Notes: a model not told the origin generated them from the letters alone. A DNA stretch of 64,000 bases from Azolla caroliniana (GCA_043228905.1 JBHGNT010000017.1:6324001-6388000); one strand, 5' to 3'. Numbered from the stretch's first letter, positions 913-48,379 are shown. Translations and numbers: made by a program.

Positions 913-2974
913 ACGCTGCCTCGAAGAAGTCCACGCCGACTTCTTCGTCCTCCGAAACCATGTTGCCCTCGTCATCAAACCTCGCCCTCGAAAGCATGTC
1001 GGCCATGGCGTTGTCCTTTCCGGAAATGTGCCGTATTTCCGGGTCCAGGGACTTGATGTACGCTATCCACCTGAGCATCGCCAGGTCCGGTGTCGCGCAT
1101 CTGGAAACCATGCCGAGAATTGGTAGGCAATCCGTCTCGATAATCACTTCTGTCCCGATCAGGTAGTCTTTGTCGGCCTTTACTGCCGAAACGATACCCC
1201 AAAGTTCGCGTTTAACCTGGGCGTACCCTCGCTGTCGCTCGCTGAGGACCTTCGCGCCGAATCAGATCGGGAACCGATTGCCGTCCTCGTCTTCTTGGTT
1301 GACGACCCATCCGATCCCGGTCGGACTCGTATCCACCGTTATGTATACCGGGGTACCCTTCTCGTAGACAGCCTTCCGGAGCGCCGGTACTGCCGCAAGA
1401 GCTTCCTTCAGCTTCCGGACCGACTCCGTGTGCTCGTCTCGCCTCTTGAATTTTCGCCCTTTCTTCAGCAACCCATATAGCGGCTCCGCAACGTGGGCGT
1501 AATGCGGGATCCATATGTGGTAGAACGCGCATGCCCCCAGGAACCTCTGAACTTCTGTAACCGAGCTACAGTCGGTCTTCATCGCGGAGATGGCTTCTAC
1601 CTTTGCCGGAGACGGCTTCTGGCCATATGGTCCACATAGGTGTCCAACCACCAGGATTTCCGGTTGCCCGAAGGCCAATTTCTCCCCGGAGAAGGTGAGC
1701 CTCGCATCCTCTAGCCTTTGTAGCACCTTCTCGCAGTCGTCGATGTGTGTCGCCACGAATCGCTGGCATCCGTCCGGCCCGACTGTCTCGTCCTTCTCTT
1801 CCACCGGGCACCCCTTGATCAGGATGTCGTCTAGAAATGACATGGTGATGTCCGGGATGCAATTCCTCAGTACTTTGTTCATTGCATTCACCATGTGGGC
1901 CACCGAGTTGGTCCCTCCTTGTTGCAGGGTACACATTCGCACCAGGCCGAGGGGAGTTCGCATCGTCGTAATGTCTCTGCTCTCCACATCTAGCTGGAAC
2001 TGGTCGTATCCCGAGTACAGATCACCGACCGAGTAAATCGACCTTCCGGCGAAGGCCTCTGCGAACTCGTCTATGGTCGGTCCGATTCCTGCGTTCCGAA
2101 TGGTCACTCTGTTGACCGGCTGCAGATCCTGAATGAAGCGCAATGTCCCGTTTTTCTTTGGTACGGTAAACCATCGGTTCGAGTATGGGGCACTCGACGG
2201 TTCGAGAATGCCCATATCGACTTTTTGCCTCAATAGCTCCATCAACTCCGGGATGTGCGCTCTCGGTACTCGAATCGGCTTGAGATTCCACGGCACATGT
2301 GGTACTGTGAATATCACCATCGGCTCCACAATCGTCGGGTCTACACACCCGATCTCTTCCGGCGAAAATGCGAAGGCTTTCCCGTGGCTTCCGAGCATTC
2401 TCCGAAACCGGTCTTCCTCCGCCGGCAGTAGGAACCCGCCCCCACCGATCTTGAGCTCCCGGAGCGTCCCGTCGGTGAAGGTGTGTCCTATGCAGGCCGG
2501 ATCTCGTAAACTGGGGTCCGACGCAACCCCTCTGATTCGGGACTCGCTACCCTCCGGTAAGGGTGCCGCGACGGGCCTTACCTTCCGGCCCACAGCCTTG
2601 TACTTTGTGCTAACTCGGGCCGTCCGATCCAACCCGAGCCCCCGACTGAAGTTCGCGATGACTTTGTACATCTCTTCGGAACATACCGGTATCGTCCGGT
2701 CTTCGTTAAGGTCTTCTCCAGCTACCTCCCCCAGCATTCCCAAGGTGTCGTCGAAGGAGACCGCCTCCACGGCTCCGCTAATTTCCTCGTCTGGGCCGAG
2801 AACTCCACATGCTCGAAGTCGCACTTCCGCCCTTGTCTTTTCTCGGCCGACGATGCCGACTATCATACACCCTCCGTTGTTGGAGAAGCAGAATTTCCTA
2901 CCTATCGTACAGTCGTGGGGTCTTTCCCGAGTGTCCGGGCTGTCTCGGCCCCACGCCTTGGCAGCCCTCTCTAA
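913..2974 (-). pseudogene. Gypsy pol (reverse transcriptase + RNase H), disrupted
   Basis: ORF 1262-2866 has KKNGTLRFIQDLQ, GDLYSGYDQF, FLDD, FLGAC and VDTS. ORF 905-1147 has ETDCLP and GKDNAMADMLSR. There is a stop at 1262. Confidence 0.93.
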
Positions 2975-2980
2975 AAATCC
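2914..2980 (-). promoter_or_regulatory. Putative -1 programmed ribosomal frameshift signal (G GAU UUU + pseudoknot) between protease and RT ORFs
   Basis: GGATTTT-TAG ends the gag-PR frame. The -1 frame is open from 2974 into the RT ORF. Stem GGGCTG/CAGCCC starts 6 nt downstream, and loop CGTGGGG can pair with CCCCACG. Confidence 0.75.
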
Positions 2981-5096
2981 TCCCGGTTCTCGCCACCGAG
3001 GGATTTGCGGTTTCTCTCGTGGTTCGGCCGCACCGTCAGAAATTGAACCGAATGACGCCCGTCCTGGCTTTTGACCCTCGCGTAGGCCGAACCGTTGTCC
3101 AGCACCTTGGTCTCCATTCGCGCCGCCGTGATGTATGGTTCCCCTAATATGACCGGGTGCGAGGACATCTCCTGTACGAAGAAGTGCTGGTCAATCTCGA
3201 CGTCGCCGATCTTGACTCGCACGTTCGGGCAGGCCCTGTGCAGTTCCTCGGTGGCGCGCGTCGCCGCCCGTATCTTCCACCCGTGCTTGGTGTTGATCGG
3301 CCACATCAGGTTTATTTCCGAACCGTGGTCCACCAATGCCACCACCGGTTCCTGAACATCTCCGATCTTTACCGGGGTCTCCGTGGTCGCTCGGGCCCAG
3401 TGCGGCCTTGAATAGTGGCTCTCGCCCACTCATCTTCCAGCGCCATGTCGTCGATGTGCGTTGTCCACACCTCCACCGGTCTTTCCGGTTCCGTCTCCGT
3501 CGACAGCCTCTTCCGTTTCACCAGGTCCACAATGGAGTCGTGGAACTCCTTCTTTGCGATCCCTAGCACCTCTCGCAATGACAGCTCCACTTTGCTGTCG
3601 AGGATCCGTTCTTCTAGGACCTTTCGTAGGTCCGTAGTCCTTTCTATTTCCGTCCCCAGTCGGTATCTGCCCTTCCTGGGGTTATCTTGCGCGCTGGACC
3701 CACCGGCATCGTTCCGTCGTTTCCCGAATCGGGTCTCGTACCGTTGTGAGGGCCCGGCCGCTCCGGCTTTCCCCACTCGTTTGTCTTCTACTAGAGCCTC
3801 GTAGTTCTGGCAGGCGGCTTCTACGAAGCCCGTCTTCTTCTCGACCGGATCGCTCCACCCGGTTATTTACCGGACCCGTCTCTCAGCGCGGTCCGTTTCA
3901 TCTTTCCTTAGCCGTGCGCCAACAAGGCCTTCCAGCATTGCCGACCAGAACCCGTCCTTGCTCTCCTTTCGGGCCTCGCTACCCCCGACCCGAATACCGG
4001 CCGACGCTGAGTAGTGGATGGCCTCCACGTGTCGGGCCGCTGCCTCTTCCATCAGTCTCTTCATACCTCCTCGCCCGTCGTTTCGGTTTAGGGCCCTTCT
4101 GGTGTTGCCGGCGTGCACCCGGCCTTCCCACAGGTACACCATCCGGTTCCTCAACGCTTCTGCGAAATCGCCGCAGTCCTTCCGGAGGTGGCCGACCTCG
4201 TCGCACCACATGCACTTGTTTCCTGCTACCGGCCGTCGGTCACGAGCCGGTTCGCCGCCTTCCCTTCGAGTCTGGGCGATCTGGAGATCCTTTATCGCCC
4301 GCGTCAACTCCTCTAGCGCTGCTCCTCCGGACGAGCCATTGACCATGCTGGTCGAAGCCGGACCGGTTTTGAGCCATTCCCGGGCTTCTTCCCTTCGCAC
4401 TTGCGGTGCCGGTTCGAGCCTCCTTGCTGTAACAGAGCCCGCACCTGCCGCCCCGTTGTCAGCCCATTCTCGCCGTTTGTCGAAACGGCCACAGACTCTC
4501 TTAACCGCAGCCCAGTCGGTTGTCAGCCCGTCTTCGGTTTCCAGCAAGGAGCCGACTTGATCCCGGTCCCGCTCGTCCACCGATTTGACGAACAGTAGGA
4601 CCCGGCTCGTATCCAGAATGGTTCGGTCAAGCGCCGAAAGGCGCGCAAAGCGTTCTTCGAACTCCCGGAGGAGTGCCGACGTGTTTCTTCCTTTGCCGGC
4701 GGACTCCACCCATTCCATGAAGTCTCGTTTCGAAAGCCGGAGCGCGTCGTCCAGCCCGTATTTTTCTAGGAGTCGGCCTTCGAACTCCTCCCAGGTACGG
4801 CTCTCCGCCCGCACCTCGAGCACCTCCGCATGGATGCTCGGCATCGCCACTCGAGGAAACCGGGCAAGATGCCTCTCTTCCGAAATGTCCCGCATCAGCA
4901 TTTCTGCCCAGTAGGACGCCAAATACTTCGTAGCATCCTTTCCGCTGAACCGGCCGATTGTACCGACGACCGCCTCAATGGCTCTGTCGAGGGCGCCAGT
5001 GCCCTCGCGTGCACTCAATATCCGATCCACGGCCGACGCCATGGCCTCTGCAAGATCCGACCCCTTCATTTTCTGCTCTTCTACCGCCTCCTTCAT
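2971..5096 (-). pseudogene. Gypsy gag-protease, disrupted by a stop and a frameshift
   Basis: ORF 3867-5210 has zinc knuckle CMWCDEVGHLRKDC. ORF 2971-3429 has aspartic protease motifs LVDHGSEINLM and VILGEPY. Confidence 0.9.
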
Positions 5097-5724
5097 GTCG
5101 GGTTCACCAAGATGTCGAGGTATCCCTCGCGGATGCGTGGAATGAGGCGGGACCTCGGGGGTCCTGTACCGAAGAGCAAGAGAGAAAAGGAGAGGGGAAG
5201 AGACCCACAAGGTGCGAGTGTAGATTCACAGGGACACGGCCCTTCGACACAGAGACGCGAGTGGGACAGCGACACAGAGAGACACGAATGTATGTCGAAA
5301 TATATATAAACAAGACAAACAACAAGCACGAAGTCGGTTACAACCGAACAGGCCGGCGAACAGATGTCGATGCCTGTTCGTAAACGTACAAAAAGGAAGA
5401 AGTAGGTTGGAGGTGCTGCCGGAAGCACTCGGGCATTCCTCAGAGCAGCGCGAGCCTCCCGAAACCTGCACAGAAAGAAGCTATGGAGTTTGGAAGAGAG
5501 AGAAGCCTTCGGCCCACAATCCGACAGCACTTCGTCCTCCCTTACTTCGCGATCCCTCTCCCCTCCTTGTCTCCCTCCTTTTATAGGCAAGGAAAGAGCC
5601 GTTTCCTATTAACTTCCTACCTACCGAGGATCTTCTATGTACAACATAAGGCGCACGTGTATGAAGAGCCGGTTCCTACGCTCCGGTGCACCGATTCCGC
5701 TTGTGGCCGGTTTTCTTCATGACA

Positions 5725-7190
5725 ACGGTTCGCGGTCAGTCCTTCAATCTAGACCTCCAAGTGGGTGTAGAACAACGAATAGGTGTCTAAGCGTAATGCG
5801 TAGGGGAAGGTTCCCTGTAACTTATCAACGTATAAGGGAGACGGCTACAACCGAATCCCTGCCAAGGGTTACACTTACATACTTGAACGCTTAGGTATTC
5901 AAGACACACACAGTGGATTAGCCGTAGCTATACACAGGAAATCAGAGAAGATAGAATTCTATTATGAGACGTTTCTTTACAATCCCAAAATTACACGCAC
6001 CCTCTATCAGAGGTTTTCTGCCCTTTATATACGCAGGGTCTATTTAGCCATTCACGCTTCCTGCGTAAACCATTACATGCGTTATGCTCTTATATTATTT
6101 CTTATTCCTATGCTTTTGTCCGTCGGTTACTATTCCGGCGGACAACACCTGGCACGCCTGTGGGACAGTGCCCTAGCACGTTGGACCCATCCCGTTCCTC
6201 CTCTTCCAAAATGGCCTGGATGTTTGGCTCTGTTGCGGTGTCCGTGTCTGGACGTAACGTAGGGCTCGTAGGTGCATTGTGCTATGGCTCCCCTGTTTGG
6301 TCGGGCTGGTTTCTCCCGGAGTCGCGGTCGCCGTGTGTGGGCAGTCTGGGGACGGTGGGCTCTTCTTGAGCTAGTGGGTTGGGCTTCGCCATTGTCGTGC
6401 TTGCAGTCAGCTGCGGCTCTGCCTCCATTGTTACATCCTCCGTGGTGTCAGCAGTTTTTGTATGTTCCGGGGAGTGGGCCGGAGATTCCGCCTGGCCCGC
6501 ACTGTTCTCCGTGTGGTCTAATGATAGCGTGGGCTCGTGCGGATGAACCTCTTGTTGTGCAGTGGTTTCGCTGTCTAGTCTTGTGGGGAACTCTGCTTGT
6601 CGGTCCCCGCTATTCTCCATCGTTTTCATTTCTGGTGATCGGGCCTGAGCTTCCTCTTCTTCGGTTGTGCCCGGAATTGGCGTCGCGCTAGATTCCTCGT
6701 TTGTAAGTGTATTGCCGGTTTGTGTGATCTAGTGAAATATCCCCTCCTGGCTTTCACCAAAATCATCTAAGAGCTGTGTGAGTTCTTCGGAGTGTTGGTC
6801 CGCTAGCGCACAATAGTCTTGCACTAGGTCCTCGCGTACGGCCGTAGTGCTCTCCTCATTTAGTTTATAGAAACCTCGACCGTCTTTTCGCCGGTTCTCC
6901 TAGTCCGCACCGCACGATACGCGTGCAATTCCGCTGCTTGGGTTGGCCATGCCATCCACCCTTTGTCGAGCGTCGTTCTCAATTGCGTTGTGAACATCTC
7001 TTGATTAGTTTGGAGAAGGATACGCACGTTATCTATGATGGCCTGGCAACGGTTGCGTGCGTCTTCCATCGACTTCTAGAGATTTGCGATTTCCTGCTGT
7101 TTAACCGCTGCCACTTCCTCGTACGTGGCCTTCAAGCCCGCCCACAGCTAGGATTCTATTGCATGTTGTTCTTCTAATTTCCCCATTTCA
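5725..7190 (+). mobile_element. Fragment of a probable Tat-like Gypsy element C: LTR end at about 6147, tRNA-Arg-like PBS, 5' internal region
   Basis: ...GGACAACA followed by TGGCACGCCTGTGGGAC (6150-6166), close to the tRNA-Arg PBS TGGCACGCCCAGTGGGAC of Tat/Retand elements. No core domain is visible. Confidence 0.45.
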
Positions 7191-7209
7191 TTGTTTAGGA
7201 GTTAAAAAT

Positions 7210-7607
7210 TGTTGAGCGGCAAGCTCAACCGGAACCGAATCGGCTGAATAAGCCTGAGCCGGTAAGCAAGATGAATCGGTATGCCGGTGAGCAACCGAGC
7301 TAGTAAGTAGTAAGGACCGGTGAGCTGGGGAGCCGGTATGCCGGATCAAATCCGTAACCGGAAGCCTAGTATAGGTTAGACTACTAGGAAGTTATAGTCT
7401 CGTAGTTAGTGTCAAATGCTCGTGTGAGCATTGAAGTACACCGTACTTCTAATAGTCCCATGTGGACTTGTATAAATAGCGTTGATGAGCGCGTTGTAGA
7501 AAAAAGCACAGAGTATTCATATAATTTTGAAGAATAGTGTGTCCTCTCTCTCTGTCTCTCTGTCTCTCCCGGGTACTCTCTCTCTCTTTCACAAGCAATC
7601 TTTCACA
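7210..7607 (+). repeat. 5' LTR of Copia D
   Basis: TGTTGAGCGG...TTTCACA, a direct repeat of 12724-13161, with TATAAATA at about 7471. Confidence 0.95.
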
Positions 7608-7657
7608 TGGTATCAGAGCACGTGGGTTGAGAACCTCTGCTCCAGACATCTACGCTT

Positions 7658-10600
7658 GTGAAGGAAACCCTAACAGATCAGAAAACAGACACAAAAGGAG
7701 AAATGGACAAAGGTATGGCTACGTCGCTCCCGATGGAGAAGCTCAACAGAACCAACTACGCATCTTGGTCATACAAGATGCACCAGTACTTGCTTGGGCA
7801 TGGCTATTGGAGTTATATCGATGGAGTGAACGACTCAGCACCGGAGACGACACACAAGGACTTCCTAGTGTGGGAACAGGCGGCAAGCAGGGTGATGTAC
7901 TGCTTTGCGTCCAGTGTCAGTGACCAGCTGCTCAGCCATATCCATGATGCCAAGACATCGAAGGATGTTTGGGGAAAGTTGAAAAAGGTCTTCAACGCAA
8001 GCACCACTGCCCGGAAGCTGCAACTCAGACAGGAGTTGAGCAATGTTCAACAGAAGAACATGTCGGTGGCAGATTACACAGACCGGATCAAAGGGATCTG
8101 TGAATCGCTTGCCTTTATTAACATCACCGTAGAGGAAGACGAGATGGTGCAGGTCTGTCTTGGAGGCCTAGCGTCCAAGTTCGGCGCTTTCCGGACTGCG
8201 GTTTGTACAAGGGAGAATATGCCCTCATTTTTCGACTTACAGTCGATGCTCCTTGTAGAGGAGAACCACGCCAGTGCCTCAACCAGTGCATCCCCAGACA
8301 GCCGGATGGGGTACACGGGAACGGATCGGTCCCGCGGGCATGGTGGACGAGGCGGGTCGACACGCAATGGAGGCAGCCGGCAAGAGCAGGAACAAAGGCA
8401 CAGTGAGCGTGCCGACAGTAGTTCCAGGACTTCCACAAGCAGGGGGAGTCAAGGTGGTGCCGGAGGCCGGCAAGACAAATCCGCTACGAAATGCTGGTAC
8501 TGTGGCAAAAAGGGCCACAGGGAAAGCGAGTGCTCGAGAAAGTGTGCTGATTTGGACAAATCCGGATCCGGCAGGACCGGTAAGGAAGGCCAGCAAAGCT
8601 CGCACTACGCAAACGGATCGGGAGGATCCAAGAACGGTAAGGGGCCAGCCTTGGTGATGAAGCACAAGGGAAACTCAATGAAGAAGACCACTTCCAAATC
8701 GGAGGAAGTGTGGTACGTTGACTCCGGCGCATCGAACCACATGACGAGCCACGAGGAGTGGTTCTCCTTTTTGGAGAAGCCGGATCAACCGGGAGTTGTC
8801 GAAACCGGAGACGACACTCCCCACCCGATCGTGCACGTCAGAGAAGTCCCTTTGAGCCACGTCGAACAGAGGGGGAAGCTGATGAATGTATTACATGTTC
8901 TGACGATCACGAAGAACCTGGTGTCGGTCAGACAGATCGTCGACCAGGGGATGCAGGTGCGGTTTACGCACCTCGGGTGCTTCATTAAGGATGAGGGCGA
9001 AGTTATTGCGCAAGGACGTAGAGATGGGAGGATGTTTATCCTCAACACCAATGACGTCGGCACCGCACTGTTCGCCAAAGGACAGAAGGTCGAGTCGGAT
9101 ATCGACCTGTGGCACAAGCGGATCGGCCACGTCAACTACCGGAGGCTTCAAGACCTGCAAACGGAACAAGTCGTTTTCGGTTTGCTGTAGTTTAGCGGCC
9201 GGAGAGCCCAGATTTGTGAAGCCTGGCAACTCGGGAAGCAACACTGGCTTCCATTCCCCACCGAAAGAAATCGAATCCGTAACAAGCTTGATCTTATCCA
9301 TTCGGATGCGTGGGGACCGGCACAAAATGTTTGCATTGGCGGAAGTCGATATTTCGTCTCCTTCATCAACGTCTACACGCGGCATACGTGGATCTAGCTC
9401 ATTGAGCGGAAGAGCGAAGTCTTCGAGTGTTTCCGGAGCCTCCAGAAGATGGTGGAACGGGAATAGGAGAGGAAGATCAAATGCCTACGGTCGGATGGCG
9501 GAAAAGAGTACTTTTCCAACCAATTCAATGGCTATCTGCAACAAAAAGGAATTCGGCGAGAATTCAGCTGCAAATACACACCGCAACAGAACAGTGTGGC
9601 CAAAAGGAAGAATCGGTCGCTGATTGACGCGGCTAGGGCAATGCTGGAGGAAAAGAGCATGCCCAAGTTCTACTGGGCGGAGGCGGTCCAAACGGCCGTT
9701 TACATCTAGAACCGGATCGGGGACAAGGTGTTAGCTCACGAGCTGTATTTCTGGCGCAAGCCGAATCTGAGACACCTCCGGATATTCAGCAGCATAGCCT
9801 ATGTACATGTGCCGGATGAGAAGCGGAGAAAGCTGGATGCAAAATCGGAAAAATGCATCCTAGTCGACTATGCTCAAGAGCAAAAGGGGTATAAGTGTTA
9901 TAACCCCTGGACGAAGCAGGTCAGAGTCAGCCGAGATGTCGAGTTTGATGAATCGGCATCGTGGTATTTCTTACCGACTCTGACTTCCGATCCCGACCCG
10001 ATGTCAGAGGATGGGGCGAGTGAGCCCGAACCAGCCCAAGTAGAGAAAGATGAAGCCGGGACTCAAGATGAGAGTTCGGAATCGTTCCGGTTAAGCGGAC
10101 CGAATGAGAGACTAGATCAGTCCAACCAGTCGGATGATGAGATGGCGAGTAGTAGAGACTCTGTCGTGGTCTCCCCGCGCAAAGAACCGAGGAGATGGTT
10201 CACACGCAAAGAGAAAGGGAAGCAGAAGATGCCGGAATTCGAGACCGGCAATGATGAGTCGGATCGGTGTGTATCTGACTTCGGCAAGGACATAGGCAGA
10301 TCTTCGGGAACGAACACCGAACCAGCCAAGAAGGGTCTCATACCGGGTAACGGTGAGTTACGCCGGTCCACCCGCCAGAAGGATCCCGTTAAACGGTACG
10401 GGTATAATGAGTACATGGCGCATCATTATGCATACATGACCAAGGTCGCGGATGTGCGTGAGCCGGAGAGCTACACAGAAGCAGCAAAGGACGCAAATTG
10501 GCGTGCTGCTATGGAGGAAGAAATGCGGGCACTGGATGCCAATGGAACTTGGGACCTGCTTGACCCTCCCTGTCACTGTAAACCGATCGGATGCAAGTGG

Positions 10601-12141
10601 GTGTACAAGGTAAAGTACAATGCCGATGGTACAGTTAACCGGTACAAGGCCCGGTTAGTGGCAAAGGGATATGCACAGACCCAAGTAATCGACTACGACG
10701 AGACCTTCGCTCCTGTAGCGAAGATGACGACGGTTCGTGTGGTACTCGCGGTTGCTGCGGCAAGGGGGTGGCATCTTCATTAGATGGATGTGAAGAATGC
10801 CTTCCTTCAAGGAGATCTTGAAGAAGAAGTCTTTATGACTTAGCCCCCCGGATTTCAGTCGGAGGTGAACAAGTCGGCGGTATGCCGGCTGAGGAAGTCA
10901 TTGTACGGCTTGAAGCAAGCCCCCCTGCTTGGAATGCTAAGATCACGCACTGGTTGCGAAAGATGGGGTTTGTTGCCTCCAAGTCGGACTCTTCCCTGCT
11001 TATCCGTCAAGGCTCAAACGGTCCGGTATGTATCTTACTCTATGTTGATGATTTAGTCATCACCGGCCCAGGTCTTCCGGAAATCAACCGCGTCAAGTCC
11101 CAGTTGTCAGACGCATTCGATATGAAGGATTTGGGGGACCTTCATTATTTTTTGGGGATCGAGGTGATCCGCACCCCCGACGGTATATTGCTTTCTCAAC
11201 GCCATTATGTGTTGAATATACTGTACAAGTTTGGCATGACGGAATGTTGACTTGTCTCCACACCCCTAGACCGGAATAAGAAGATCCATCCCAACTCAAG
11301 ACCAGCTTGCGATGAGAAACGGTTCCGACAAATAGTCGGAAGCCTGATCTACTTGACCATCACCTGACCCGGCATTAGCTATCCGGTCGAAGTGGTAAGC
11401 CAATTCATGCAGAAGCCGACCGTGGAGCACCTTCAGTGCGCGCAACGAATATTGAGGTATGTAAGTGGCACTAAAGACCGGGGGCTCTTATACTAGCAAG
11501 GTATAACCGAAGAGCTTGTCGGCTACACGGATGCCGATTGGGCTGGCGAGGCAATGGATCGTCGCTCAACTTCCGGCTTTATGTTTTCTCTTGGGAGCGC
11601 GGCTGTTGCGTGGAGCAGCAAAAAGCAGCCAACAGTGGCTCTATCCAGCACTGAGGCTGAATATCAGGGCACGACCATTGCCACCTGCGAAGCCTTTTGG
11701 CTTTGGCAACTACTGCAAGACCTGCGGATCGAGGTACCGACCCTGATCCTGATCTACTTTGATAACCTCAGCAGCATGCAGCTCGCCAAGAACCCTATGT
11801 TCCATGCTCGCACAAAGCACATAGAAGTGCATTATCACTTCGTGCGTGAGCGGGTCCTGAGCGGTGAAGTTGAACTACGGTATGTTCACACGGATCGGCA
11901 AGTTGCGGACATCTTCACCAAGCCACTCGGGTCGGACAAGTTGCAACACGTTACCGAAGTGATTGGTGTTCAGCATCTCAACGTGCCGCACTTGAGGGGG
12001 AGACACAAGGGCAAAGACACTACCGAAACGGGCAAAGGCAAAAAAATTGTTGAACCCGTAGGTAAGAGAAGAACCGGTAGAGGTGGACACAAGAAGAAAA
12101 ATGAAGCCGAGTCGATGAAGGAAGTCAGCACATCCGAATAG
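7658..12141 (+). pseudogene. Copia gag-pol polyprotein (gag, zinc knuckle, protease, integrase, RT, RNase H) with multiple stops and frameshifts
   Basis: Motifs [74 protein letters not shown] and ADIFTK. Confidence 0.95.
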
Positions 12142-12723
12142 GTCGGAGTGAGCAGTTGTGAAGAATAAGTGTACACTCAGGAAGAGAAGTGCATGCTATG
12201 CGGAGGTCATCATGATCGTAATGGCCATGATCTGGAGTCGAATGAAGAATTTGACTTCGGTGAACCGGCTGAAGAAGCCAAGGGAAGCACGGAGAATGCC
12301 AAGACCCGGACGTGGTCCGATGTGGTGAGAGGCCTGAAGCCAAAAATCGAATCGGAGGATACTGATTCGGACAAGAGCTGGAACGAATCGGAGACAGCCG
12401 ATTCGGATCAACAGACGGATCTGGATGAGTCGGATCAACGAGAGGCCAAGGAGACATGGACGCAGCGGAAGTCGATGCCATCGCGGAGCAACCGATGGAT
12501 CGGCAAGCGCCGGAGTCATAGCAGCGAAGGAGCTCAGATGGGCCTATTGAGCAGACATGCCGAAGGTTGAGGCGCGCAGAACCAAAGGGGTCGCGGCAAA
12601 CGGGACCGGACCGGACAAGGAGCGCGAGCAAGACGAAGCGACGCCAAGAGAAGTCGGTTGGAAGAACCGGCTGCCATAGAGGTGGACACTAAGACCCTAC
12701 CTCAGGTTGAGCTCGAGGGGGAG

Positions 12724-13054
12724 AGTTGAGCGGCAAGCTCAACCAGAGCCGGATCGGCTGAATAAGCCTGAGCCGGTAAGCAAGATGAATCGGTATGCCG
12801 GTGAGCAACCGAGCCGGTAAGCAATAAGGACCGGTGAGCTGGGGAGCCGGTATGCCGGATCAAATCCGTAACTGGAAGCCTAGTATAGGTTAGACTACTA
12901 GGCAGTTATAGTCTCGTAGTTAGTGTCAGATGCTCGTGTGAGTATTGAAGTACACCGTACTTCTAACAGTCCCGTGTGGACTTGTATAAATAGCGTTGAT
13001 GAGCGCGTTGTAGAAAAAAGCACAGAGTATTCATATAATTTTGAAGAATAGTAT

Positions 13055-13099
<45 letters not shown>

Positions 13100-13161: not shown

Positions 13162-13166
13162 AAAAT

Positions 13167-14990
13167 GAAAAAAAGTATGATAGAAAACTAAGACATCTAG
13201 TGTGCATTAACAGTCGAGTTAGAGATATTGGGTGTTGTTGTCGTTTGAGATATTAGTAATGGTTGTTGTCGATTTTGGGTTTATTAAATATTGATTGAAT
13301 TGATTATACTCATGTGATTGACGATTTTCTATCTCTCTCTTCCAATCTATTGAAAAGTTTGGGTTGATTTCTTGGATTCTTAATACTAATTATACTAATT
13401 CACTATACTCGTGAAACTCATGAGATTCGTACCTTTCTCTTTCATAGATGTCCGGGACCGGAAAGACCTTGCAATATTTCTAGAAGATACAACCACTGAG
13501 AGTGGCCTCACCAATACCTGCAAAAATGTGCAAGACATCATCGCTCAATACACAAAGAGGGGGCAATGGCTCAGTAATGAAGAAAAGATGGTTTCGGAAC
13601 CAATTTCGAGACCAAGAGCCAGATGGGAAGACCATTAACCATGGGCTCGAGAGACTACTACAACCAAGAAGGGAAATGATGCAACCACGGTGGAGTAGTT
13701 GCTAAAGGAGATGGAGAATATGAAAATCACAATGGTGAAGAAGTCAGAAGACCATCCCACAAGTTTCAAGTATATGGACCATCGGTGCATATGGTGTGAT
13801 AGCACCGAACATGATCAGAAGGATTGCGATGAGCACAACGAAGCTCTACATCGGGATCTCATCTACTATGAAGGAAATCGGATCCATTCGATGCAATCTC
13901 GGAAGATGGCATGAAGAAGGTCCTAGAGGAGCAGATTGCGACAAAAAGAAATTATGCAACAACCGCGGGAATACGTGTGGGTGAAACATCTAGAGTGAAG
14001 TCATCTTTTTGGCTAGAAGTGCTAGAAATCTCCGACAGAACCGGCTCTGATGAAATCTGAAGCACCACGGAAGGCATCTGAGAAGCTACGGGATGGGAGT
14101 GCCCCATAGATAAGAATAGCGTATACGCCCTATGTCAATTACATGAGGTGTATGTAGATGAGAAACGACGGCACACGGATGATGCGATCAGACCATCAAA
14201 GACACTGGAGAGTTGGAATTCTGAAGAAAAAGGAAAAGTGAAACTGATCCCGGCATTCAAACTCACCTCGGACATCGAACAACACCTAAAGTTCAAAGTG
14301 TTTGAAGAAAGAATCCTTGATAGTCGGGTGGAATTTTCTCTTCGGGAATTGCTCGGAATAGCAAAGAAAGAGTTCCATGATCTCCTCGTGGATCTCATGA
14401 AGAGAAAGTGGCAAGCTACGGAAGAATCAAAGGCTTCAAGGGTCAATGCAAATACCGTTCAAATGAACACTTCCAGGATGAGATTCCGAACTCCCACTAT
14501 ACAAAGCCACACTAGGCACGGGCAACTACGGAGACTCCGGTCCGGATTGGAAACATCAAAGACCCTGTCATTACGTTGATTGATCATGGATCGGAGATCA
14601 ACTTGATGTCTGAGGAGTTCTACCGAAAGGGGAAGTGGCCTATAAACACCAATCATGGATGGAAGATTTGGAGCAGCATTTGCATAGATTTAGAGCCAAA
14701 GCAGAGGCAAAACCGTCCAATTCCTAATTGTGCCATCGAATCACGAAAGGAACAAGAGAGAACCCTTGTCCCAAACAAAAATGGATTTTTAAAGCGGATT
14801 GTTGCGGACTAGGGAAGTGATAGTCCAAGAAGCCCTGATACCCCACACAGGAAGAAAACTCTCAGAGCGAAACAAGTGCAAATCAGTCTGGATGGGAAGA
14901 AGTGAAACAAGTGCGAATCAATCCGGATGGGAAGAAGTGTGGAGTTCTAGTAAAATTCCTGATTCATGGAAAAGTGGTCTAAGACTTGTT
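13167..14990 (+). mobile_element. Degenerate Gypsy element E of the same lineage as A (LTR remnant, gag-PR fragments)
   Basis: Motifs CIWCDSTEHDQKDC, FEERILDSRVEFSLRELLGIAKKEFHD and IDHGSEINLM, plus GGATTTTTAA at 14783. Confidence 0.8.
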
Positions 14991-25400: not shown

Positions 25401-28400
25401 TCGTTTAACTTGTGCATAGTTTCTTTGTTTTTCATTTAATATCTTTGCCCCAAATCTGATAGCATATCGATGTTGGTCTTCATCTTCTTGGTTGATAACC
25501 CAACCGATCCCGATTGGGCTAGTATCAATTGTTACTATAATTGGTCTTTCACCTTTGTAGTTTGGTTGACGAAGAACTTGTGCTTTCAATAATGCTTCTT
25601 TCAATTGTTGAACAACTTGTGTATGTTCATCAGTCCAAATAAACTTCTTCCCTTTTCTTAAAAGTTGGTAGAGAGGATCTAATACATGCACAAAGTGTGG
25701 TAACCAAATATGATAAAACACACATGCACCTAAAAATCTTCTCACCTCTGTTACCGATTCGCAAACCTCCTTCATATTTTGTATTGCGTTAATTTTGATC
25801 GGTGACGACTTCCTCCCATATCAACCACACATATAACCAACTATCAGAACTTCGTTCTACCCAAAGCTTGATTTTGTTCCTAATAGTGTCAAATGTACCT
25901 ACTCAAGCTTATTTAAAATACTCTCACAATCATTAATGTGATCCATCACAAACTTTCTGCAACCATTTCCAACCATAGTCTCATCTTTATCTCTTTCTAA
26001 GCATCCCTTAATAGGAATCTCATCTAAAAATGGCATAGTTACCTTTGGGATGTACTCATGTAGAACTTTGTTCATTGCATTCATCATATGAGCAACTGAA
26101 TTTGTCACACCTTGAGGTAGAGTGCACATCTAAACTAACCCAATTGGTGTTTTCATTGTTGTGATATTCTGACTATCAATTGTTATCTGAAACTGGTTGT
26201 ATCCCGAATATAGGTCTCCTATAGAGTAAATCGCTCTCCCAGCAAAAGCTTCTGCAAATTCATCAACGATTGGTCTGATTCCTGCATTTCGGATTGTGAC
26301 TTTGTTGACTGGTTGTAGATCTTGAATGAATCTTAGAGAACCATCTTTCTTTGGAATGGTGAACCATCGGTTGGAATATGGTGTGTTGGAAGGCTCTAAA
26401 ATCTTCATCTTGACTTTATCCTTCAGTAGCTCCAACAACTGAGGCAATCGAGCTCTCGGTACTGCAATAGGTTTAAAATTCCAAGGAATATGAGGGATAG
26501 TAAATATTACCATTGGTGTCACCACCTTTGGATCTATACAACCAATCTCCTCAACTTTGAATGCAAATGCTTTCTCATGCCTAAAGATCATTTCTTTGAA
26601 AGTCAAGATCTCTGATTGCAGAAGAAATTCACCCCCTCTGAAGAGAAGTGATGTCCGATCTTCTCTATTAGTCGAAGCATAGGGTCGGTTGCTACTACCT
26701 CCATCTTCTCTTCGTTACCAATGGGTAATGGTACTGCAACCTGTTTGACCTTTTTGTCTATTCTTTTGTATTTTGTATTACATAAACTTTCTACTTCTTC
26801 ATATTTACAATTATACCTATCAATCTCATAATACATATTAATTGAGTTTACATGTATCTTTCTAACACTCTCATCATCTTTTTTCAAATACATTTCTAAC
26901 TCTTCTATGGTATTTGCAAAAGAAATTTCTTCCATAACACTTTCAATGTGCTCTTCCATTTCAAGTACTCCATTATCCTTCAATGTCTGTTGAAACAAAT
27001 TAGCATTCTTTTTCAAGTTCCTCTTGCATTCATACATCCTAGTCACACATATAGCACCACTTTCAGAAACATGAAATGACTTATTCATATGTTGTAATGC
27101 CCTACGTGAGGGTCTTTTAATAATGGGACTATTGCAACCCTCATTTGCAATAGTCCTAGTCATAAACCTAATTATCAAAATCATCACATTCTTTTGGTAT
27201 CGAATGATCACGAAGCTCTTGCTTGTTCCTCTCATGATTTGGGCGAACTGTCATAAACTGTATAGTTCTTCGTCCATCTTGGCTTCGAATCTTCGCATGG
27301 GCAGACCCATTGTCAAGGACTTTGGTCTCCATCCGTACCGTTGTGATGTATCGTTGCCCCAAGATTATCGAATAGGTAGATCCTTCCTACTCAAAGAAAT
27401 GTTGATCTACATCTATATCACCAATAATAACCTTTACATTTGGGCATGCACCAAATAAATCTTCGGTGACTAATGTGATTGCTTTTACATGCCAACCATG
27501 TTGAGTATCAATTGGCCATCTACCTTTCTTGTAAAAATCAGCACTCATTATATTTATTTCAGAACCATGATCAATAACTGCCATCACCATGTCTGGAACA
27601 TTTCCAATTTTTACATGATGCTTAGTAGTGGCTCTTGCCCAACATTTGCGAGAGTAGTGGCTTCTTGCATCTATTGAACTTATCATTGAGGTTGATGCAT
27701 GTTGAGAGTCAACAAGGATATTGTTTGACTCGTTACTCACCACTTCATATGCCACCTTCGGATTTGTCTCTTTAACCTGCTCATGTACTTGCTTCTTTCT
27801 TCGCACAATATCAATTACTTCATCATAAAATTCCTTTTTCGCAATACCTAACACTTCTCTTAGTGCAAATTCTACTCAACTGTCTGGTATTCTTGTTTCT
27901 AAAATTTCTTTAAATCAGACATTAATTTGAATGAAGGACCAGATTTACCTTTTTCGACTTTTGCGTCCATCTCTTTTCTTTTGCTTTCTCTTGTCTCATG
28001 TTTTTTTGTTGAGCCAATCTCATCATCCTTGGTGTTCTACCATCTAAGCATAGATTGTCATAGCATCTACTGGAACATCCCATCTAGTGTTTTTTCTTAT
28101 AGAATCTCCGGCAACACAAAGGTCTTCCATCTTCAACTTTTGCTTTTGTGCGAAACTTACAACCTTCTCCCAAAATGATGATCGGTATGGTGTGTCATCA
28201 AGACGCATTCCTGCCGTTACCGAGTAGTACATTACAGAAGCCTTTTTTGCTTTAGCTTCTTCAGACTTAACCTTGTGGACTTCTAGTTTCAGTTAAGTAA
28301 ATGTTACCATTTTTCTAGTAGACCAAGTCTCGATTTTCCATGTCTTTATATTCCACACAATCACGTAGTCGATGTTTGAGACTATCACACCACATGCATC

Positions 28401-36095: not shown

Positions 36096-38921
36096 GGGCG
36101 TGTGGCCCATATGATAGACAATAAACTTAGGATGACTTTATGGAACTGTAACGGTGCACTTTGGACACACCTTGGCCGTCTAGAGGAGATCTTGAAGATA
36201 TCTAACATACTTTTTTTAGTAGAAACACATCAAAGCCCAAATCGACGACTGCTAGGAGTTGACGGTTTTCGTTGGGAATCTGTCTTTAGACAAACCTCAC
36301 GTCGACATACTACTAGAGGGGTTGCGATACTATTTCGAAGAGAGATACATAAAAAGATTGAAATACTAAAGAAAAACCTAGAAGCCCGTTTTATGTGGGT
36401 GAAGGTCCTCACTAACAAGGATCAGTCAATATTTATCGCCGTGTGTTACTTCCCCCCGAAAGGATCCCGATATAATATGGCTGGAGAGGCGAGTATAGTT
36501 GATGAAGGAACGCCGCATGGGCCTTCGTATGGTGGGCCTTCTCCATACGAACCTTTATCAGATGACATAATCCGATATTCTTCTCAAGGGGAAGTCTTCC
36601 TTGTAGGAGATTTCAATGTGAGAACCCAATCCCAACAATGCACAATATTTCAGATGGATAGAAACCTAGAAATGGTGAATGTCGACCCTTTAGACTTAGA
36701 CATAACATGTACATCAAAGGATCAAGGTGCGGACGCCACAAGCTTTGGCCATCATCTGCTTGAACTTGGAAGCCGACACCAGATGATCATATATAATGGC
36801 TTAGCCAAGTGGCTGGGCTCGGAAGCGCTCACATGTTTCCCACATGGAGGAGGGGAAAGCACAATTGATTATCTAATAGGATGCCTTGAAGCTACCCACA
36901 TTGTTAACTATTTCCGGGTGGCCCCATGCCCCATTGGTGCAGACCATACCTTCCTATACTTTGAGCTAAAATGTGACACCTCCCATGCCCCCAACTGTAG
37001 TCAATCAAACCATCACACCATAAAAAATTTCATGCATGAGCTCGTTGACATCTACTCCGGACATGTTCAAGCCCATCTCTCCTCTTTTGATTCTTCCTTT
37101 CCTTTAGAGAACCTCACTACAGAACTTGCACACATGCTTCACTCACCAGCAATTAGTAGCTTCCCATACACAAAACACTCCAATCATAGTAGAATAGGGT
37201 CTATGCCATAGAACAAGTGGTATGACGAGGATTGTAGAAAGTTGTATAGACAACTTCAAGTGTCGTGACTTAGTGGTACTATTTCCTCAGTACATGCTCG
37301 AAAAGAGATGCGCAAGATGACACATTGTAAAAGGAGAGCTTGGGAAGCATCTCAATATTGGGAACTCTACCATATGCTCATGAGTAGGGATTGTGCCCTT
37401 GCATGGAAGAGACTACGGGAACCGCGACCACAAAAACCCATCGAGGATCCCAATATTTGGCACACATATATCGAGACACTCCACCATGTCCCTCACCAAC
37501 CACCCATTCCAATGCCTCCAAGACCCCGAACTACTATGGGGACACTTTTCATGACCTCTAGGGTCACGAAGGTCATAAAAAAATTACAACATAGGAAATC
37601 CATGGACCACATAGGATTGCAAGCTGAGCACATCATATATGCTCGAGAGTGCCTAACCCCCTTTCTCACTCTAATCTTCAACCGTGCCCCTCGCCGAGGG
37701 TTTTCCACCACAATGGACCATGAACACGGTGGCCCCTATACATAAAGGAGGGGACCCGATGGATCCAAATACATATATGACCATTATGATAGCTCAAATG
37801 CACGCTAAACTATATGGTGCGGTAATGGAAGTGGAGCTCAGTGATTATATGGAAACATTAAGTCTTCAAGCACCTGAGCAGGCTAGCTTTAGACAAGCCT
37901 TCTCCAATATTGACCATATCTTCACACTTACATGCTTAATTGACCAGACGAAGGCTTGTAAGAAGAAACTATATTGTTGCTTTGTGAACTTCTGCAAAGC
38001 CTTTGACACTGTTCCTAGGGAGAAGTTGTTTGATAGACTTAAGAGCTTGGAGATACCAAATGACATGATCTGGGCCATATATGCCCTATATGAGCAAGTC
38101 TCTGGGTGCGTAAGATGCCCAGGTGGCCTCTTCGATTGTTTCACTAGCACCATTGGTGTAAAACAAGGTTGCCCCCTATCACCAACTATTTTTGTGATCT
38201 ACATTGATGAGATCATTGATTTTATGGCTCGTAGGTAAGGGAGTATCTATTGGGGATACGCAAGTTAGTCTCTTACTCTACACAGATGACATTGTCTTGC
38301 TCTCGGAGTCGGAACACGACTTACAAAAGCATCTTAATGCCCTAGATGACTTTTGTACACAACAAGGACTAGTAATGAATCTAGCGAAAACTAAAGTCCT
38401 TATCTTTCATACATCGTTCCGAGTTAGGAGTAAATGTCGCCTAATCCTCTGTCATAAATTAGTTGAGGTAGTTGGATCATATGTATACTTGGGAGTCACT
38501 TTTAGTGCTCGCTCAAGTAAATTCTCGATGATGCAGGCAGCCAAACATAGGCTAACGAGAGGGTATGCATCCCTCTCACTCTTAGAGAGACAATGCCACC
38601 AGGCATACTTTAAAGAGCCACGGACTAAGGGATGGCTCTTCGACTCATTAGTGATCCCTTCCCTCATGTATGCATCAGTAGTATGGGCTCCAGGTCTACC
38701 ATCTTTCATGTGGATGCAATTAGAGAGACCTTTGGTGACAATGTTATCACATCAACTCCGAAGCAAATTGACAGTACCACATGACATTATTAAAGGAGAG
38801 TTCAATCTACCCCCGATGTTAGTAGAAGCACTGTTTCAAGTGGTAGTTTTTATTCATCAGATACATAGCCAACCACAAGATAGGATATCCCATAGAGCCT
38901 TTGAGGCATCCCGATCCCTAC

Positions 38922-39495
38922 TGTTGGGAGACAGGTCCCTCCGGATGGGAAGGAAGAAGAACAGGCTACGGAGAGTCGGATGGTGCAGACCCGGTGAAGA
39001 CCGGATGATGAGTACCCGGCTATGGAGAGCCGGATGGTGCAGACCCGGTGAGAACCGGATGAGGAGTACCCGGCTACGGAGAGCCGGATGGTGCAGACCC
39101 GGTGAGAACCGGATGAGGAGTACCCGGCTACGGAGAGCCGGATGGTGCAGACCCGGTGAGAACCGGATGAGGAGTACCCGGCTACGGAGAGCCGGATGGT
39201 GCAGACCCGGTGAGAACCGGATGAGGAGTACCCGGCTACGGAGAGCTGGATGGTGCAGACCCGGTGAGAACCGGATGAGGAGTACCCGGCTACGGAGAGC
39301 TGGATGGTGCAGACCCGGTGAGGAGTGCTCACCGAAAGAAGAGACATATTCGTAAATATGTTTTCTGAGCATCCATTGTGGCTATATTTGTAAATAGCCG
39401 AAAAGTCATATTAGTATAAATATGACTTAGGGCAAACTTTTATATATGGTTGTTGTCATACTTGTTTGCGCGAGATTAGAGCGCGGAACTGTGTA

Positions 39496-39533
<38 letters not shown>

Positions 39534-41381: not shown

Positions 41382-41434
41382 TGGTGTAATGGCAAGGGCT
41401 CAACCTATGTAACATAAGGTCATGGGTTCAAATC
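41382..41434 (+). promoter_or_regulatory. tRNA-derived Pol III A box/B box pair in LTR of N (copy at 58466-58518)
   Basis: TGGTGTAATGG...GGTTCAAATC, spacing 43 nt. Confidence 0.7.
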
Positions 41435-43730: not shown

Positions 43731-46655
43731 ATTACAACCTCCCTTATGCCACCGGCTACCGAGTTGACTACCACTGAGATGCCGAAGATGTTGATGTATA
43801 AGGAATAGAAGCCCTAAAATATCTTGAGTAAGAAGTATAATAGAAGCAAAACTCTCAAACCCTAAAATCCTAACTCCTCTAGTATGTTGAGGAGAAAAGA
43901 AGAAAAGTAGAAAGAAGAAGCTCTCAAACCCTAACCCTAAAATGAAAAGATGAAAGAGAAAGTGATAAGGAGAAAGTGAGGCTACCAAACCTTAACCCAA
44001 GAAGAAGAGGAGAAGATGAAACCCTAGTGGTATACCCCTACGGCAAAATGGGCGAGTTACAACCTCCATTATGCCACCGGCTACCGAGTTGACTACCACT
44101 GAGATGCCGAAGAAGTTGATGTATAAGGAATAGAAGCCCTAAAATATCTTGAGTAAGAAGTATAATAGAAGCAAAAGTCTCAAACCCTAAAATCCTAACT
44201 CCTCTAGTATGTTGAGGAGAAAAGAAGAAAAGTAGAAAGAAGAAGCTCTCAAACCCTAACCCTAAAATGAAAAGATGAAAGAGAAAGTGATAAGGAGAAA
44301 GTGAGGCTACCAAACCTTAACCCAAGAAGAAGAGGAGAAGATGAAACCCTAGTGGTATACCCCTACGGCAAAATGGGCGAGTTACAACCTCCCTTATGCC
44401 ACTGGCTACCGAGTTGACTATCACTGAGATGCCGAAGAAGTTGATGTATAAGGAATAGAAGCCCTAAAATATCTTGAGTAAGAAGTATAATAGAAGCAAA
44501 ACTCTCAAACCCTAAAATCCTAACTCCTCTAGTATGTTGAGGAGAAAAGAAGAAAAGTAGAAAGAAGAAGCTCTCAAACCCTAACCCTAAAATGAAAAGA
44601 TGAAAGAGAAAGTGATAAGGAGAAAGTGAGGCTACCAAACCTTAACCCAAGAAGAAGAGGAGAAGATGAAACCCTAGTGGTATACCCCTACGGCAAAATG
44701 GGCGAGTTACAACCTCCCTTATGCCACCGGCTACCGAGTTGACTACCACTGAGATGCCGAAGAAGTTGATGTATAAGGAATAGAAGCCCTAAAATATCTT
44801 GAGTAAGAAGTATAATAGAAGCAAAAGTCTCAAACCCTAAAATCCTAACTCCTCTAGTATGTTGAGGAGAAAAGAAGAAAAGTAGAAAGAAGAAGCTCTC
44901 AAACCCTAACCCTAAAATGAAAAGATGAAAGAGAAAGTGATAAGGAGAAAGTGAGGCTACCAAACCTTAACCCAAGAAGAAGAGGAGAAGATGAAACCCT
45001 AGTGGTATACCCCTACGGCAAAATGGGCGAGTTACAACCTCCCTTATGCCACCGGCTACCGAGTTGACTACCACTGAGATGCCGAAGAAGTTGATGTATA
45101 AGGAATAGAAGCCCTAAAATATCTTGAGTAAGAAGTATAATAGAAGCAAAACTCTCAAACCCTAAAATCCTAACTCCTCTAGTATGTTGAGGAGAAAAGA
45201 AGAAAAGTAGAAAGAAGAAGCTCTCAAACCCTAACCCTAAAATGAAAAGATGAAAGAGAAAGTGATAAGGAGAAAGTGAGGCTACCAAACCTTAACCCAA
45301 GAAGAAGAGGAGAAGATGAAACCCTAGTGGTATACCCCTACGGCAAAATGGGCGAGTTACAACCTCCATTATGCCACCGGCTACCGAGTTGACTACCATT
45401 GAGATGCCGAAGAAGTTGATGTATAAGGAATAGAAGCCCTAAAATATCTTGAGTAAGAAGTATAATAGAAGCAAAAGTCTCAAACCCTAAAATCCTAACT
45501 CCTCTAGTATGTTGAGGAGAAAAGAAGAAAAGTAGAAAGAAGAAGCTCTCAAACCCTAACCCTAAAATGAAAAGATGAAAGAGAAAGTGATAAGGAGAAA
45601 GTGAGGCTACCAAACCTTAACCCAAGAAGAAGAGGAGAAGATGAAACCCTAGTGGTATACCCCTACGGCAAAATGGGCGAGTTACAACCTCCCTTATGCC
45701 ACCGGCTACCGAGTTGACTACCACTGAGATGCCGAAGAAGTTGATGTATAAGGAATAGAAGCCCTAAAATATCTTGAGTAAGAAGTATAATAGAAGCAAA
45801 ACTCTCAAACCCTAAAATCCTAACTCCTCTAGTATGTTGAGGAGAAAAGAAGAAAAGTAGAAAGAAGAAGCTCTCAAACCCTAACCCTAAAATGAAAAGA
45901 TGAAAGAGAAAGTGATAAGGAGAAAGTGAGGCTACCAAACCTTAACCCAAGAAGAAGAGGAGAAGATGAAACCCTAGTGGTATACCCCTACGGCAAAATG
46001 GGCGAGTTACAACCTCCCTTATGCCACCGGCTACCGAGTTGACTACCACTGAGATGCCGAAGAAGTTGATGTATAAGGAATAGAAGCCCTAAAATATCTT
46101 GAGTAAGAAGTATAATAAAAGCAAAACTCTCAAACCCTAAAATCCTAACTCCTCTAGTATGTTGAGGAGAAAAGAAGAAAAGTAGAAAGAAGAAGCTCTC
46201 AAACCCTAACCCTAAAATGAAAAGATGAAAGAGAAAGTGATAAGGAGAAAGTGAGGCTACCAAACCTTAACCCAAGAAGAAGAGGAGAAGATGAAACCCT
46301 AGTGGTATACCCCTACGGCAAAATGGGCGAGTTACAACCTCCCTTATGCCACCGGCTACCGAGTTGACTACCACTGAGATGCCGAAGAAGTTGATGTATA
46401 AGGAATAGAAGCCCTAAAATATCTTGAGTAAGAAGTATAATAGAAGCAAAACTCTCAAACCCTAAAATCCTAACTCCTCTAGTATGTTGAGGAGAAAAGA
46501 AGAAAAGTAGAAAGAAGAAGCTCTCAAACCCTAACCCTAAAATGAAAAGATGAAAGAGAAAGTGATAAGGAGAAAGTGAGGCTACCAAACCTTAACCCAA
46601 GAAGAAGAGGAGAAGATGAAACCCTAGTGGTATACCCCTACGGCAAAATGGGCGA
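43731..46655. repeat. 325-bp tandem array, 9 near-identical copies, telobox-rich
   Basis: Period 325 is seen directly and in the repeated 91-aa ORFs. 2925 bp = 9 x 325. Each unit has three AAACCCTA motifs. Confidence 0.98.
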
Positions 46656-46786
46656 CCCTCAAATAAGCGCTATCGCTCCTCTTTTATAGAGGAAAGAGGA
46701 GCTTATTTTAACATTACGTGCTTTTATTTCTTTCTTTATCACAAAAATGGAAGGAGAAGGGAAGCAAAATGCTTTGTAGGAAGAGA

Positions 46787-46840
46787 GACTCGAACTCTAC
46801 ACCTCTCTACATATACTTATAGGCCTTAACCACTAAGCTA
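46787..46840 (-). promoter_or_regulatory. tRNA-derived Pol III A box/B box pair in LTR L
   Basis: Minus strand TAGCTTAGTGGTTAAGGC...AGTTCGAGTC, spacing 44 nt. Confidence 0.65.
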
Positions 46841-48379
46841 CTACAAGTTACTTATTGTTTATTATTTTTATTCTTTTTTCTACATTATTTCATGAGATGT
46901 GTGTGGAACCTCGCTTTTTCTCACAATGCACACGCCACACCACGACAACGTCCTACCAAAACTACGAGGTGCTGGTGGAAGATAAGCGAGCGGGAAAGGG
47001 CGGAGGAGCCGGACCCTCTGGCCAGTACGAGACGCGGAGCGTGCCGAAGAGAAATGACGCCGACATTCCCGGCTCACAGGAAAGACCAAAACCGGCAAGC
47101 TACCGGCTAGGCTTAGAAATAAAGAAGGCGACAAACTTACGGAAAGTCCTTGAAGAACGAATCCTCTACAACAGGGTGGACCTGTCTCCGAGGGAAGTGG
47201 TGGGAATCGCTAAGAAGGAGTTCCACGACTCCATCGTAGACATGGTGACGCATAAAAGGCTCGCGACAGAGCCGGAACCGAAAAAGCCCATGGAAGTGCG
47301 AACGACGTACTTAGATGACACGGCTGTCGAAGATGAATTGGCAGATAGCCACTACTCGAAGCTACATTGGGTGCGAGCGACTACTGAGACCCCCGTCCGG
47401 ATCGGGAACATTGAAGAGCCGGTGGTGGCCCTAATAGACTATGGATCCAAAATAAACCTGATGTCCATGGATTTCTACAAAAAATGGAAGTGGTCGATCA
47501 ACACCAAGCATGGGTGGAAAATACGTGCGGCTATGCGTGATACGAAGAAGCTACACGGGGCATGCCTAAATGAAAACTTGAAGATTGGCGATGTCGAGGT
47601 CGATCAACACTTTTTCGTGTAGGAGACTTCCTCACGCTCGGTGATTCTCGGTGAACCATACATTACAACGGCCCATATGGAGACCAAAGTGCTTGAGAAC
47701 GGTTTAGTGTACGTGCGGGTGAAAAGCTAAAACAGACGCTACTTCGTCTAATTTATTACTGTGCGACCGAACCATGAGCGTAACCGCAAATCTCTCGGCA
47801 GTGACGACTGAGAGGATTTTTAGAAAGGGCTATCAAGGCGTGGGGCCATGATAGTCCAAACACCCTAGAGAAACCCCACACGTGTACCATAGTGATGAGG
47901 TGTTTAAGACAAAGGATAATCTTACACTATATGAGGGCTTGAACAAACCGGTTACATGGAGTTGTGACTCATAATATATTATATAGATCAAGAGAGACTC
48001 AAGAAATTAAGAAAAAAGGATAGAGAAGATGAGAAAGAGATAATATTGTTATGATATTCCAACATCAAGACAATACAAAGGAGATAAACTCCACATTCAA
48101 CTAAGAAACCAAAGACCTTCTTACTACCAATCACCAAAAAATTACAATTAAGACCCTTCCTCTTTCACTAAGATTTCTCTTCCTAAGACTCCCTCTCCTC
48201 TATTAGGATCCTCTCCCTCTTAATTCTTTTTCTTATTAGTCCTTCCACTTCTTCTTTTTCCTCGTTCACGCTGTCGTAGTGTATTTCGTACACTACGTGA
48301 AAAACTTATAAAGTACCGATTTAATAAATATGAATAAATAGTAGAAAATATTAAAATGTATATAACATGCATAGGGAAA

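Follow-up and report, generated by a model that had tools for sequence, protein, structure and literature searches.

Retroviral pro-pol shifts are canonical −1 frameshift signals. Umbra- and dianthoviruses use G_GA X_XX sites with spacers of 5-9 nt, according to the accessible part of a 2016 review (PMC5009743); that text gives phage Mu, the arteriviruses and Trichomonas vaginalis virus 1 as cases of −2 shifting and, for plants, following a 2003 survey, only +1-frame layouts. The arterivirus −2 site is RG GUU UUU (available excerpts of PMC11818727 and PMC4937337), and the shift depends there on nsp1beta/PCBP acting on CCCANCUCC, with no RNA structure (PMC4937337, in excerpt). In the available portion of Lin et al. 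(PMC3458567), the best spacer for −2 shifting is 1-2 nt shorter than that for −1 shifting, with both stem-loops and pseudoknots; the slippery site in that work is U6A, and the −2 optima with the SRV-1 pseudoknot lie at 6-7 nt, not 5. Among plant retrotransposons, the accessible sections of the REXdb paper (PMC6317226) characterize the Phygy lineage by an NCGN target duplication, a tRNA-Trp primer, a length of 7656-9968 bp and no extra domains, list its coding layout as ND, and show no Ty3/gypsy group with overlapping PROT/RT frames. In the literature accessible without subscription we found no frameshift described in Phygy or bryophyte elements and no natural −2 shift described in a retrotransposon; the open portions of PMC8310308 and PMC7466625 contain nothing on either.

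We analyzed a window of 64,000 nucleotides from Azolla caroliniana (GCA_043228905.1, JBHGNT010000017.1:6324001-6388000) and searched the 523-Mb genome that contains it for related elements, which fit the Phygy lineage of non-chromoviral Ty3/gypsy. LTRs of the form TG...CA, a 4-bp NCGN target duplication and a tRNA-Trp primer site mark the full-length copies. Of 20 regions fetched, 9 yielded no LTR pair; in the 11 elements whose two LTRs could be placed, the 5' flank reads NCGN without exception and is identical on both sides in 9. The primer site, TGGTGAACCCGACGTG after the 5' LTR, complements the 3' end of host tRNA-Trp(CCA) genes at 4/4 loci scanned. Element length is 6956-8001 bp, inside the Phygy range for 8 of 11, and Pfam finds RT, RNase H and integrase, and no chromodomain, in the two pol proteins searched; Physcomitrium, Riccia and Adiantum supply the nearest named homologues. 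The elements thus resemble Phygy in the NCGN duplication, the tRNA-Trp primer, a short internal region and close Physcomitrium homologues, and differ in their overlapping PROT/RT frames, where the layout listed in the accessible part of PMC6317226 is ND. Upstream of the slippery site lies a retropepsin domain, whose pLDDT-58 model resembles Ddi1 and retroviral proteases (E 3e-5); atlas matches carry Asp_protease_2, while Pfam and PDB sequence searches did not recognize the domain. Matches to the tRNA-Trp 3' end, on which the lineage primes, also occur in arrays at C8:17.80-17.82 Mb and C16:4.99-5.11 Mb of the genome (G000; 16 and 19 of 64 matches), with a spacing of ~1.2 kb on C8.

Four copies in the window, A, E, H and K, carry the protease/RT junction (Table 1). 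The first-pass annotation had placed a heptamer and stop in A, E and K, stems beginning 6 nt past the heptamer, a 12-bp stem in H, downstream partners for the loops of A, K and H, and an open −1 frame leading into RT in A; each of these is present at its position. The stems that it named separately are real, but all are one homologous 31-nt hairpin. The protease frame of copy A ends in E D F stop, and its −1 frame runs for 642 codons through RT (PF00078, E 7e-13). Stops or indels interrupt gag-PR or pol in 4/4 copies: E also has a deletion in PR and retains only GGG of the stem-1 loop, and in K pol homology ends at 47891 and resumes at 52111 beyond an insertion. Given this decay, the argument has to be made from copies beyond the window.

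Table 1. Features at the protease/RT junction of the four window copies (window coordinates).
Copy	Feature	Position	Strand	Remarks
A	slippery heptamer G GAT TTT, gag-PR frame	2974..2980	-	
A	6-nt spacer	2968..2973	-	contains gag-PR stop TAG 2973-2971
A	stem-1 hairpin, 31 nt	2937..2967	-	9/12 pairs; loop CGTGGGG 2955-2949
A	stem-2 3' strand CCCCACG (CCCCAC 2920-2915)	2914..2920	-	7/7 pairs; 0.15% of shuffles as good
A	protease-bearing frame	2974..3429	-	small internal deletion; retropepsin fold from H-family homologue
A	pol ORF, −1 frame	1265..3190	-	RT and start of RNase H
E	heptamer GGATTTT + stop TAA	14783..14792	+	decayed; pol in −1 in family copies
E	stem-1 hairpin	14796..14826	+	loop degenerate
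E	stem-2 3' strand CCCCAC	14841..14846	+	
H	position of family site AG GTT TTT	27162..27169	-	mutated here; premature TAG 27170-27168
H	spacer GACTA, 5 nt (27161-27157)	27156..27161	-	family gag-PR stop TAG 27158-27156 overlaps first base of stem
H	stem-1 hairpin, perfect 12 bp	27126..27156	-	loop ATGAGGG; folding z −2.8
H	stem-2 3' strand CCCTCAC (CCCTCA 27112-27107)	27106..27112	-	
H	pol N-terminal ORF, +1 (= −2) frame relative to PR	26606..27250	-	
K	heptamer GGATTTT + TAG	47814..47823	+	PR frame broken by stops upstream
K	stem-1 hairpin	47827..47857	+	folding z −2.4
K	stem-2 3' strand CCCCAC	47874..47879	+	

The insertion that splits K directly after the predicted pseudoknot holds a short element (48272-51742, + strand) with 99% identical LTRs, an ACGC target duplication, a tRNA-Trp primer site, a gag-like ORF and no pol match. 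Nine near-identical 325-nt tandem copies (43732-46631) lie between the gag and protease parts of K, and a Copia element (7211-13024) and a LINE (36096-39355), the latter with 54-nt repeats at 38899-39384, sit among the Gypsy copies.

Genome-wide, a heptamer-plus-stem pattern gave 2,448 matches against 0 in the control, and an end-of-protease pattern gave 2,679 against 7. In what we call the DF families, gag-protease ends in G GAU UUY-stop, a 31-nt, 12-bp hairpin follows 6 nt on, and pol lies in −1. The A-like loci, three of them tandem neighbours, read GGATTTTTAG in 30/30, with the −1 frame open through the full 541 codons retrieved in 6 of the 30. The L065-type, L097, L093, L112 and E families show G GAU UUY-stop with pol in −1 unless the copy is broken downstream, and in three full-length copies pol is open in −1 for 1158-1167 codons. 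We counted 124 distinct junctions in the genome, omitting loci whose anchor motif failed to match: 81 combine GGATTTY and the stem with the −1 register, 22 combine AGGTTTTT with the +1/−2 register, and the crossed combination of site and register occurs in none (0/124). The remainder have a mutated site in either register (14), register 0 (2) or no stem (5). PR and RT in one frame, named in the first-pass annotation as speaking against a frameshift, is therefore confined to two junctions, one of which is an H copy minus one T; Retand, which shares with Ogre (both of the Tat clade) an ORF boundary after GAG-PROT, differs in crossing it by a single in-frame stop. The gag-PR stop codon varies among TAG, TAA and TGA while TTT is invariant. 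The DF families thus show the canonical −1 features, namely a heptamer in phase, a 5-9-nt spacer and a downstream ORF in −1, and from these sequences a pseudoknot-stimulated −1 frameshift after the protease appears very probable. The annotation's proposal of such a shift stands, on sequence grounds, in A, E and K and in no fewer than six families or subfamilies; it fails for the clade of copy H. The DF arrangement resembles that of umbra- and dianthoviruses in its G GAU UUU (which does match the site given for these viruses in the accessible part of PMC5009743, as the annotation had it), the nearby stop, the 6-nt spacer and the 3' structure. It differs from them, and from retroviral pro-pol, in belonging to a nuclear plant retrotransposon with a single shift after protease.

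Homologous proteins end in comparable ways, although protein ends do not reveal frames: among the 120 listed, the end is [DNG]F in 77 and [DG]F plus five residues in 14; VF is followed by one residue in 3 and by five in another 3, and 23 have other ends. The class with DF/GF plus five residues (mostly ...PL) comprises P0001, P0052, P0054, P0056, P0058, P0061, P0065, P0067, P0079, P0087 and P0093 and includes Physcomitrium and Adiantum proteins; two Riccia proteins (P0078, P0080) end in VF plus five. Both classes are candidates for further site variants. The "PL-stop" class, sought in the Azolla genome itself, returned known families in the 3 loci examined of 20, and no relative was found among viral contigs. 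The genome also holds derivatives of two families that have lost pol (L168, L102, L105, L109, L116, L132, L142, L145 and L192; L104/L131). In these, Gag-PR is one ORF (688 codons in L168), the protease stop leads almost directly into the polypurine tract and LTR, and the pseudoknot is missing.

To examine the structure across families, we aligned 13 real copies from eight lineages in the pol-codon register, without gaps through stem 1. TTT is invariant (13/13), and a hairpin of 12 bp with a 7-nt loop starts 7 nt past the pol-frame TTT codon in every copy. In stem 1, 89% of cells are paired, compared with 25-39% in slid controls. The first-pass annotation had pointed to compensatory changes, and double changes indeed affect 9 of the 12 pairs across the 13 copies; the covariation score is reached by 0/500 shuffles, a control that ignores relatedness in an alignment where five rows are close kin. 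The pairing that it proposed between loop and downstream sequence (stem 2) fared less evenly. Partners lie 13-16 nt downstream (GUGGGG/CCCCAC, UGAGGG/CCCUCA, ACAGGG/CCCUGU) and beat shuffles in 6 of the 8 lineage representatives (p<0.03), whereas L112 and L189 do no better than shuffles and two other representatives have only 4 bp. Cognate partners pair better than swapped ones (p 0.018). Single-sequence folding beats shuffles (z below −2) in only 5 of 12, Rfam gave no match in 6 loci, and synonymous conservation at the junction is significant in 2 of 5 non-independent pairs.

The H clade departs from the DF families at the site itself. The annotation had supposed that H needs one extra base, and we rejected a one-base deletion: the siblings of H read CAG GTT TTT GAC TAG at the gag-PR end and share its register, and the window copy differs from them by two substitutions, one creating a premature stop and one altering the U-run, with no indel. 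Across the clade, gag-PR ends in CAG GUU UUU NAC UAG, pol lies in the +1 (= −2) frame, and a hairpin homologous to that of the DF families begins 5 nt from the site rather than 6. Of 112 H-family matches, 98 of the 100 listed share a register; of the other two, one is short of a T and one is unrelated. In ten H-family regions, pol is open for 1164-1181 codons in +1 in six, carries a single stop in one and is decayed in three, one of which has its downstream piece in −1; LTR pairs are 96-99.9% alike in the seven less-decayed regions. Two contigs from other public runs bridge the H site gap-free. A metagenome pattern scan gave 21 loci, of which we dropped 18 as chance matches and kept three: L177, a near relative of the H family (+1, pol open 998 codons); L183, a sister family reading CAG GTT TTT TAC TAG (+1, pol open 998 codons, a single metagenome contig); and L189, a single contig with G GTT TTC, a 6-nt spacer and pol in −1, so that a protein ending in VF alone is no proof of −2. 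Further GGTTTTT families were sought in the Azolla genome with 0 matches.

In the H clade, pol stays open over 1150 codons that encode RT, RNase H and integrase, and its dN/dS is 0.10-0.17 within and between families. Pol dN/dS between L152 and L183 is 0.098 at dS 1.09 (gag-PR 0.115): both ORFs are under purifying selection, and pol would thus have been translated throughout. Over the first 25 pol codons dS is 0.29. It is hardly credible, then, that the layout is an inherited lesion, with pol dead and the family mobilized in trans: the pol-less Gag-PR derivatives do indicate that trans-mobilization occurs in this genome, but the low dN/dS largely refutes a dead pol. The −1 frame of the H clade closes after ~23 codons, and a −1 shift cannot lead into pol there; −2, +1, reinitiation or splicing is required.

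We consider likely a joint reading in which the ribosome slips −1 at G GAU UUY in most families and −2 at AG GUU UUU in the H clade; for the −2 frameshift in the H clade taken separately, we are moderately in favour. Gag and protease occupy one frame and RT-RNase H-integrase another, and slippery site and predicted pseudoknot would join them. The pseudoknot would make the ribosome pause while UUU occupies the A site. Most ribosomes would terminate at the stop 0-1 codon on and yield Gag-PR; in the others tRNA-Phe would re-pair on the upstream UUU and pol would be read, yielding Gag-PR-Pol, with Gag-PR presumably the more abundant product, as the annotation supposed. In the DF families this would be a tandem −1 slip on G GAU UUY, and in the H clade a −2 slip on AG GUU UUU in which re-pairing is exact for tRNA-Phe but not in the P site; the A-site UUU would lie 7 nt from the stem after either slip. 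Counting against −2 is the P-site tRNA-Val, which would be expected to land on AGG with no pairing.

The best-surviving alternative concerns the H clade alone: a +1 slip on GUU UUU would give access to pol, and the pseudoknot would play the part it has in mammalian antizyme. The frame of pol there is formally +1, and the accessible part of PMC5009743 describes the antizyme pseudoknot 3 nt from its site and one cassette that shifts +1 or −2 depending on the host. We nevertheless judge this unlikely. The next A-site codon is GAC or UAC, neither a stop nor evidently slow. In most H copies G follows UUU, so that +1 re-pairing of tRNA-Phe, on UUG, would be imperfect and −2 re-pairing exact. The site is also the arterivirus −2 octamer, and the relatives of the H clade would slip backwards.

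Poorer still are the prospects of pol as a separate product, for which ribosomes would terminate and then reinitiate at a pol-frame AUG close to the gag-PR stop. Such AUGs do precede the stop in both −2 families (−26 in L055 and L177, −17 in L183), which also counts against −2, and in L189 (1257-1336) the stop overlaps the pol-frame start as AUGA, which we take to be a stop-restart motif as in victoriviruses. Of eight −1-family representatives, however, four lack a pol-frame AUG anywhere between −90 and +150, in two the only one sits at +77 or +107, and in one a stop closes the AUG. The AUG position is not conserved within the −2 clade while the U-run is invariant in 13/13, and the strong stem just 3' would probably hinder a restart.

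Slightly less probable again is an intron of the Ogre kind, whose excision would take out the stop and fuse PR with RT, with the U-run plus AG as splice acceptor. The Ogre intron lies at the same boundary (PMC6317226, accessible part), YAG acceptors occur within 30 nt of the stop in 11/11 representatives, and CAG|GT at the H site resembles a splice acceptor, a further point against −2. An in-frame donor (at least 4/6 consensus within 350 nt, by a crude score) is nonetheless present in only 2/11, at unrelated places, and in none of the −2 clade; the stop varies among TAG, TAA and TGA while TTT is invariant. Ogre has a spliced spacer, and the elements here have overlapping frames, a slippery site and a predicted pseudoknot. 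Contigs of four runs placed on L055 and L164 show low-depth joints only, and these runs are probably DNA; a search with the H-family query listed no RNA data set containing it.

How the proposed −2 shift may have arisen is suggested by phylogeny. The H family, L177 and L183 form one clade (support 99), whose placement in the tree is without support; the −2 layout is thus confined to one clade and therefore has one origin. In a quick PR tree, DF-ending proteins fall both inside and outside the group containing the H clade, so the −1 state is likely ancestral. We lean, if only slightly, toward regarding the H clade as a retrotransposon case of −2 shifting, natural and selected, that derives from a −1 ancestor and has an RNA pseudoknot as its sole driver. 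The −2 shift would have arisen through enrichment of the site in U and shortening of the spacer by one base, with the same predicted pseudoknot kept. The H clade would work like the arterivirus −2 shift without being a member of the arterivirus type. It shares with arterivirus nsp2TF (−2/−1) the same octamer and a downstream ORF in the −2 frame, and differs in having a predicted pseudoknot at 5 nt and no CCCANCUCC, where the arterivirus shift is protein-stimulated: the arterivirus motif 10-11 nt downstream is absent, and the 12-bp stem occupies its position. With the U6A cassettes of Lin, Gilbert and Brierley (2012; PMC3458567, available portion) it has in common a shorter spacer with the −2 frame; those are constructs, whereas here two natural sister lineages are under selection.

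If true, this reading would settle how a major bryophyte retrotransposon lineage, ND in REXdb, makes its polymerase, and it would add a protease/RT-boundary frameshift in plants. Paired −1 and −2 signals with a common structure would offer a natural test of spacer length and U content against slip direction and size, an effect so far shown on engineered or protein-stimulated cassettes; evolution would have run the spacer-length experiment of the mRNA-tension model. The overlapping frames would also explain split or falsely spliced ORFs from gene callers.

Two minor features were seen in individual copies. In two GC-rich copies, L164 and L165, a 325-codon +1-frame ORF overlaps RT, which may reflect GC content only. 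Eight H-family matches (in G000, C2:17073699, five places in C4:8.85-9.80 Mb and two in C10:8.50-8.51 Mb) share two changes, one of them a stop just before the slippery site, and are either duplicates or a non-autonomous subfamily.
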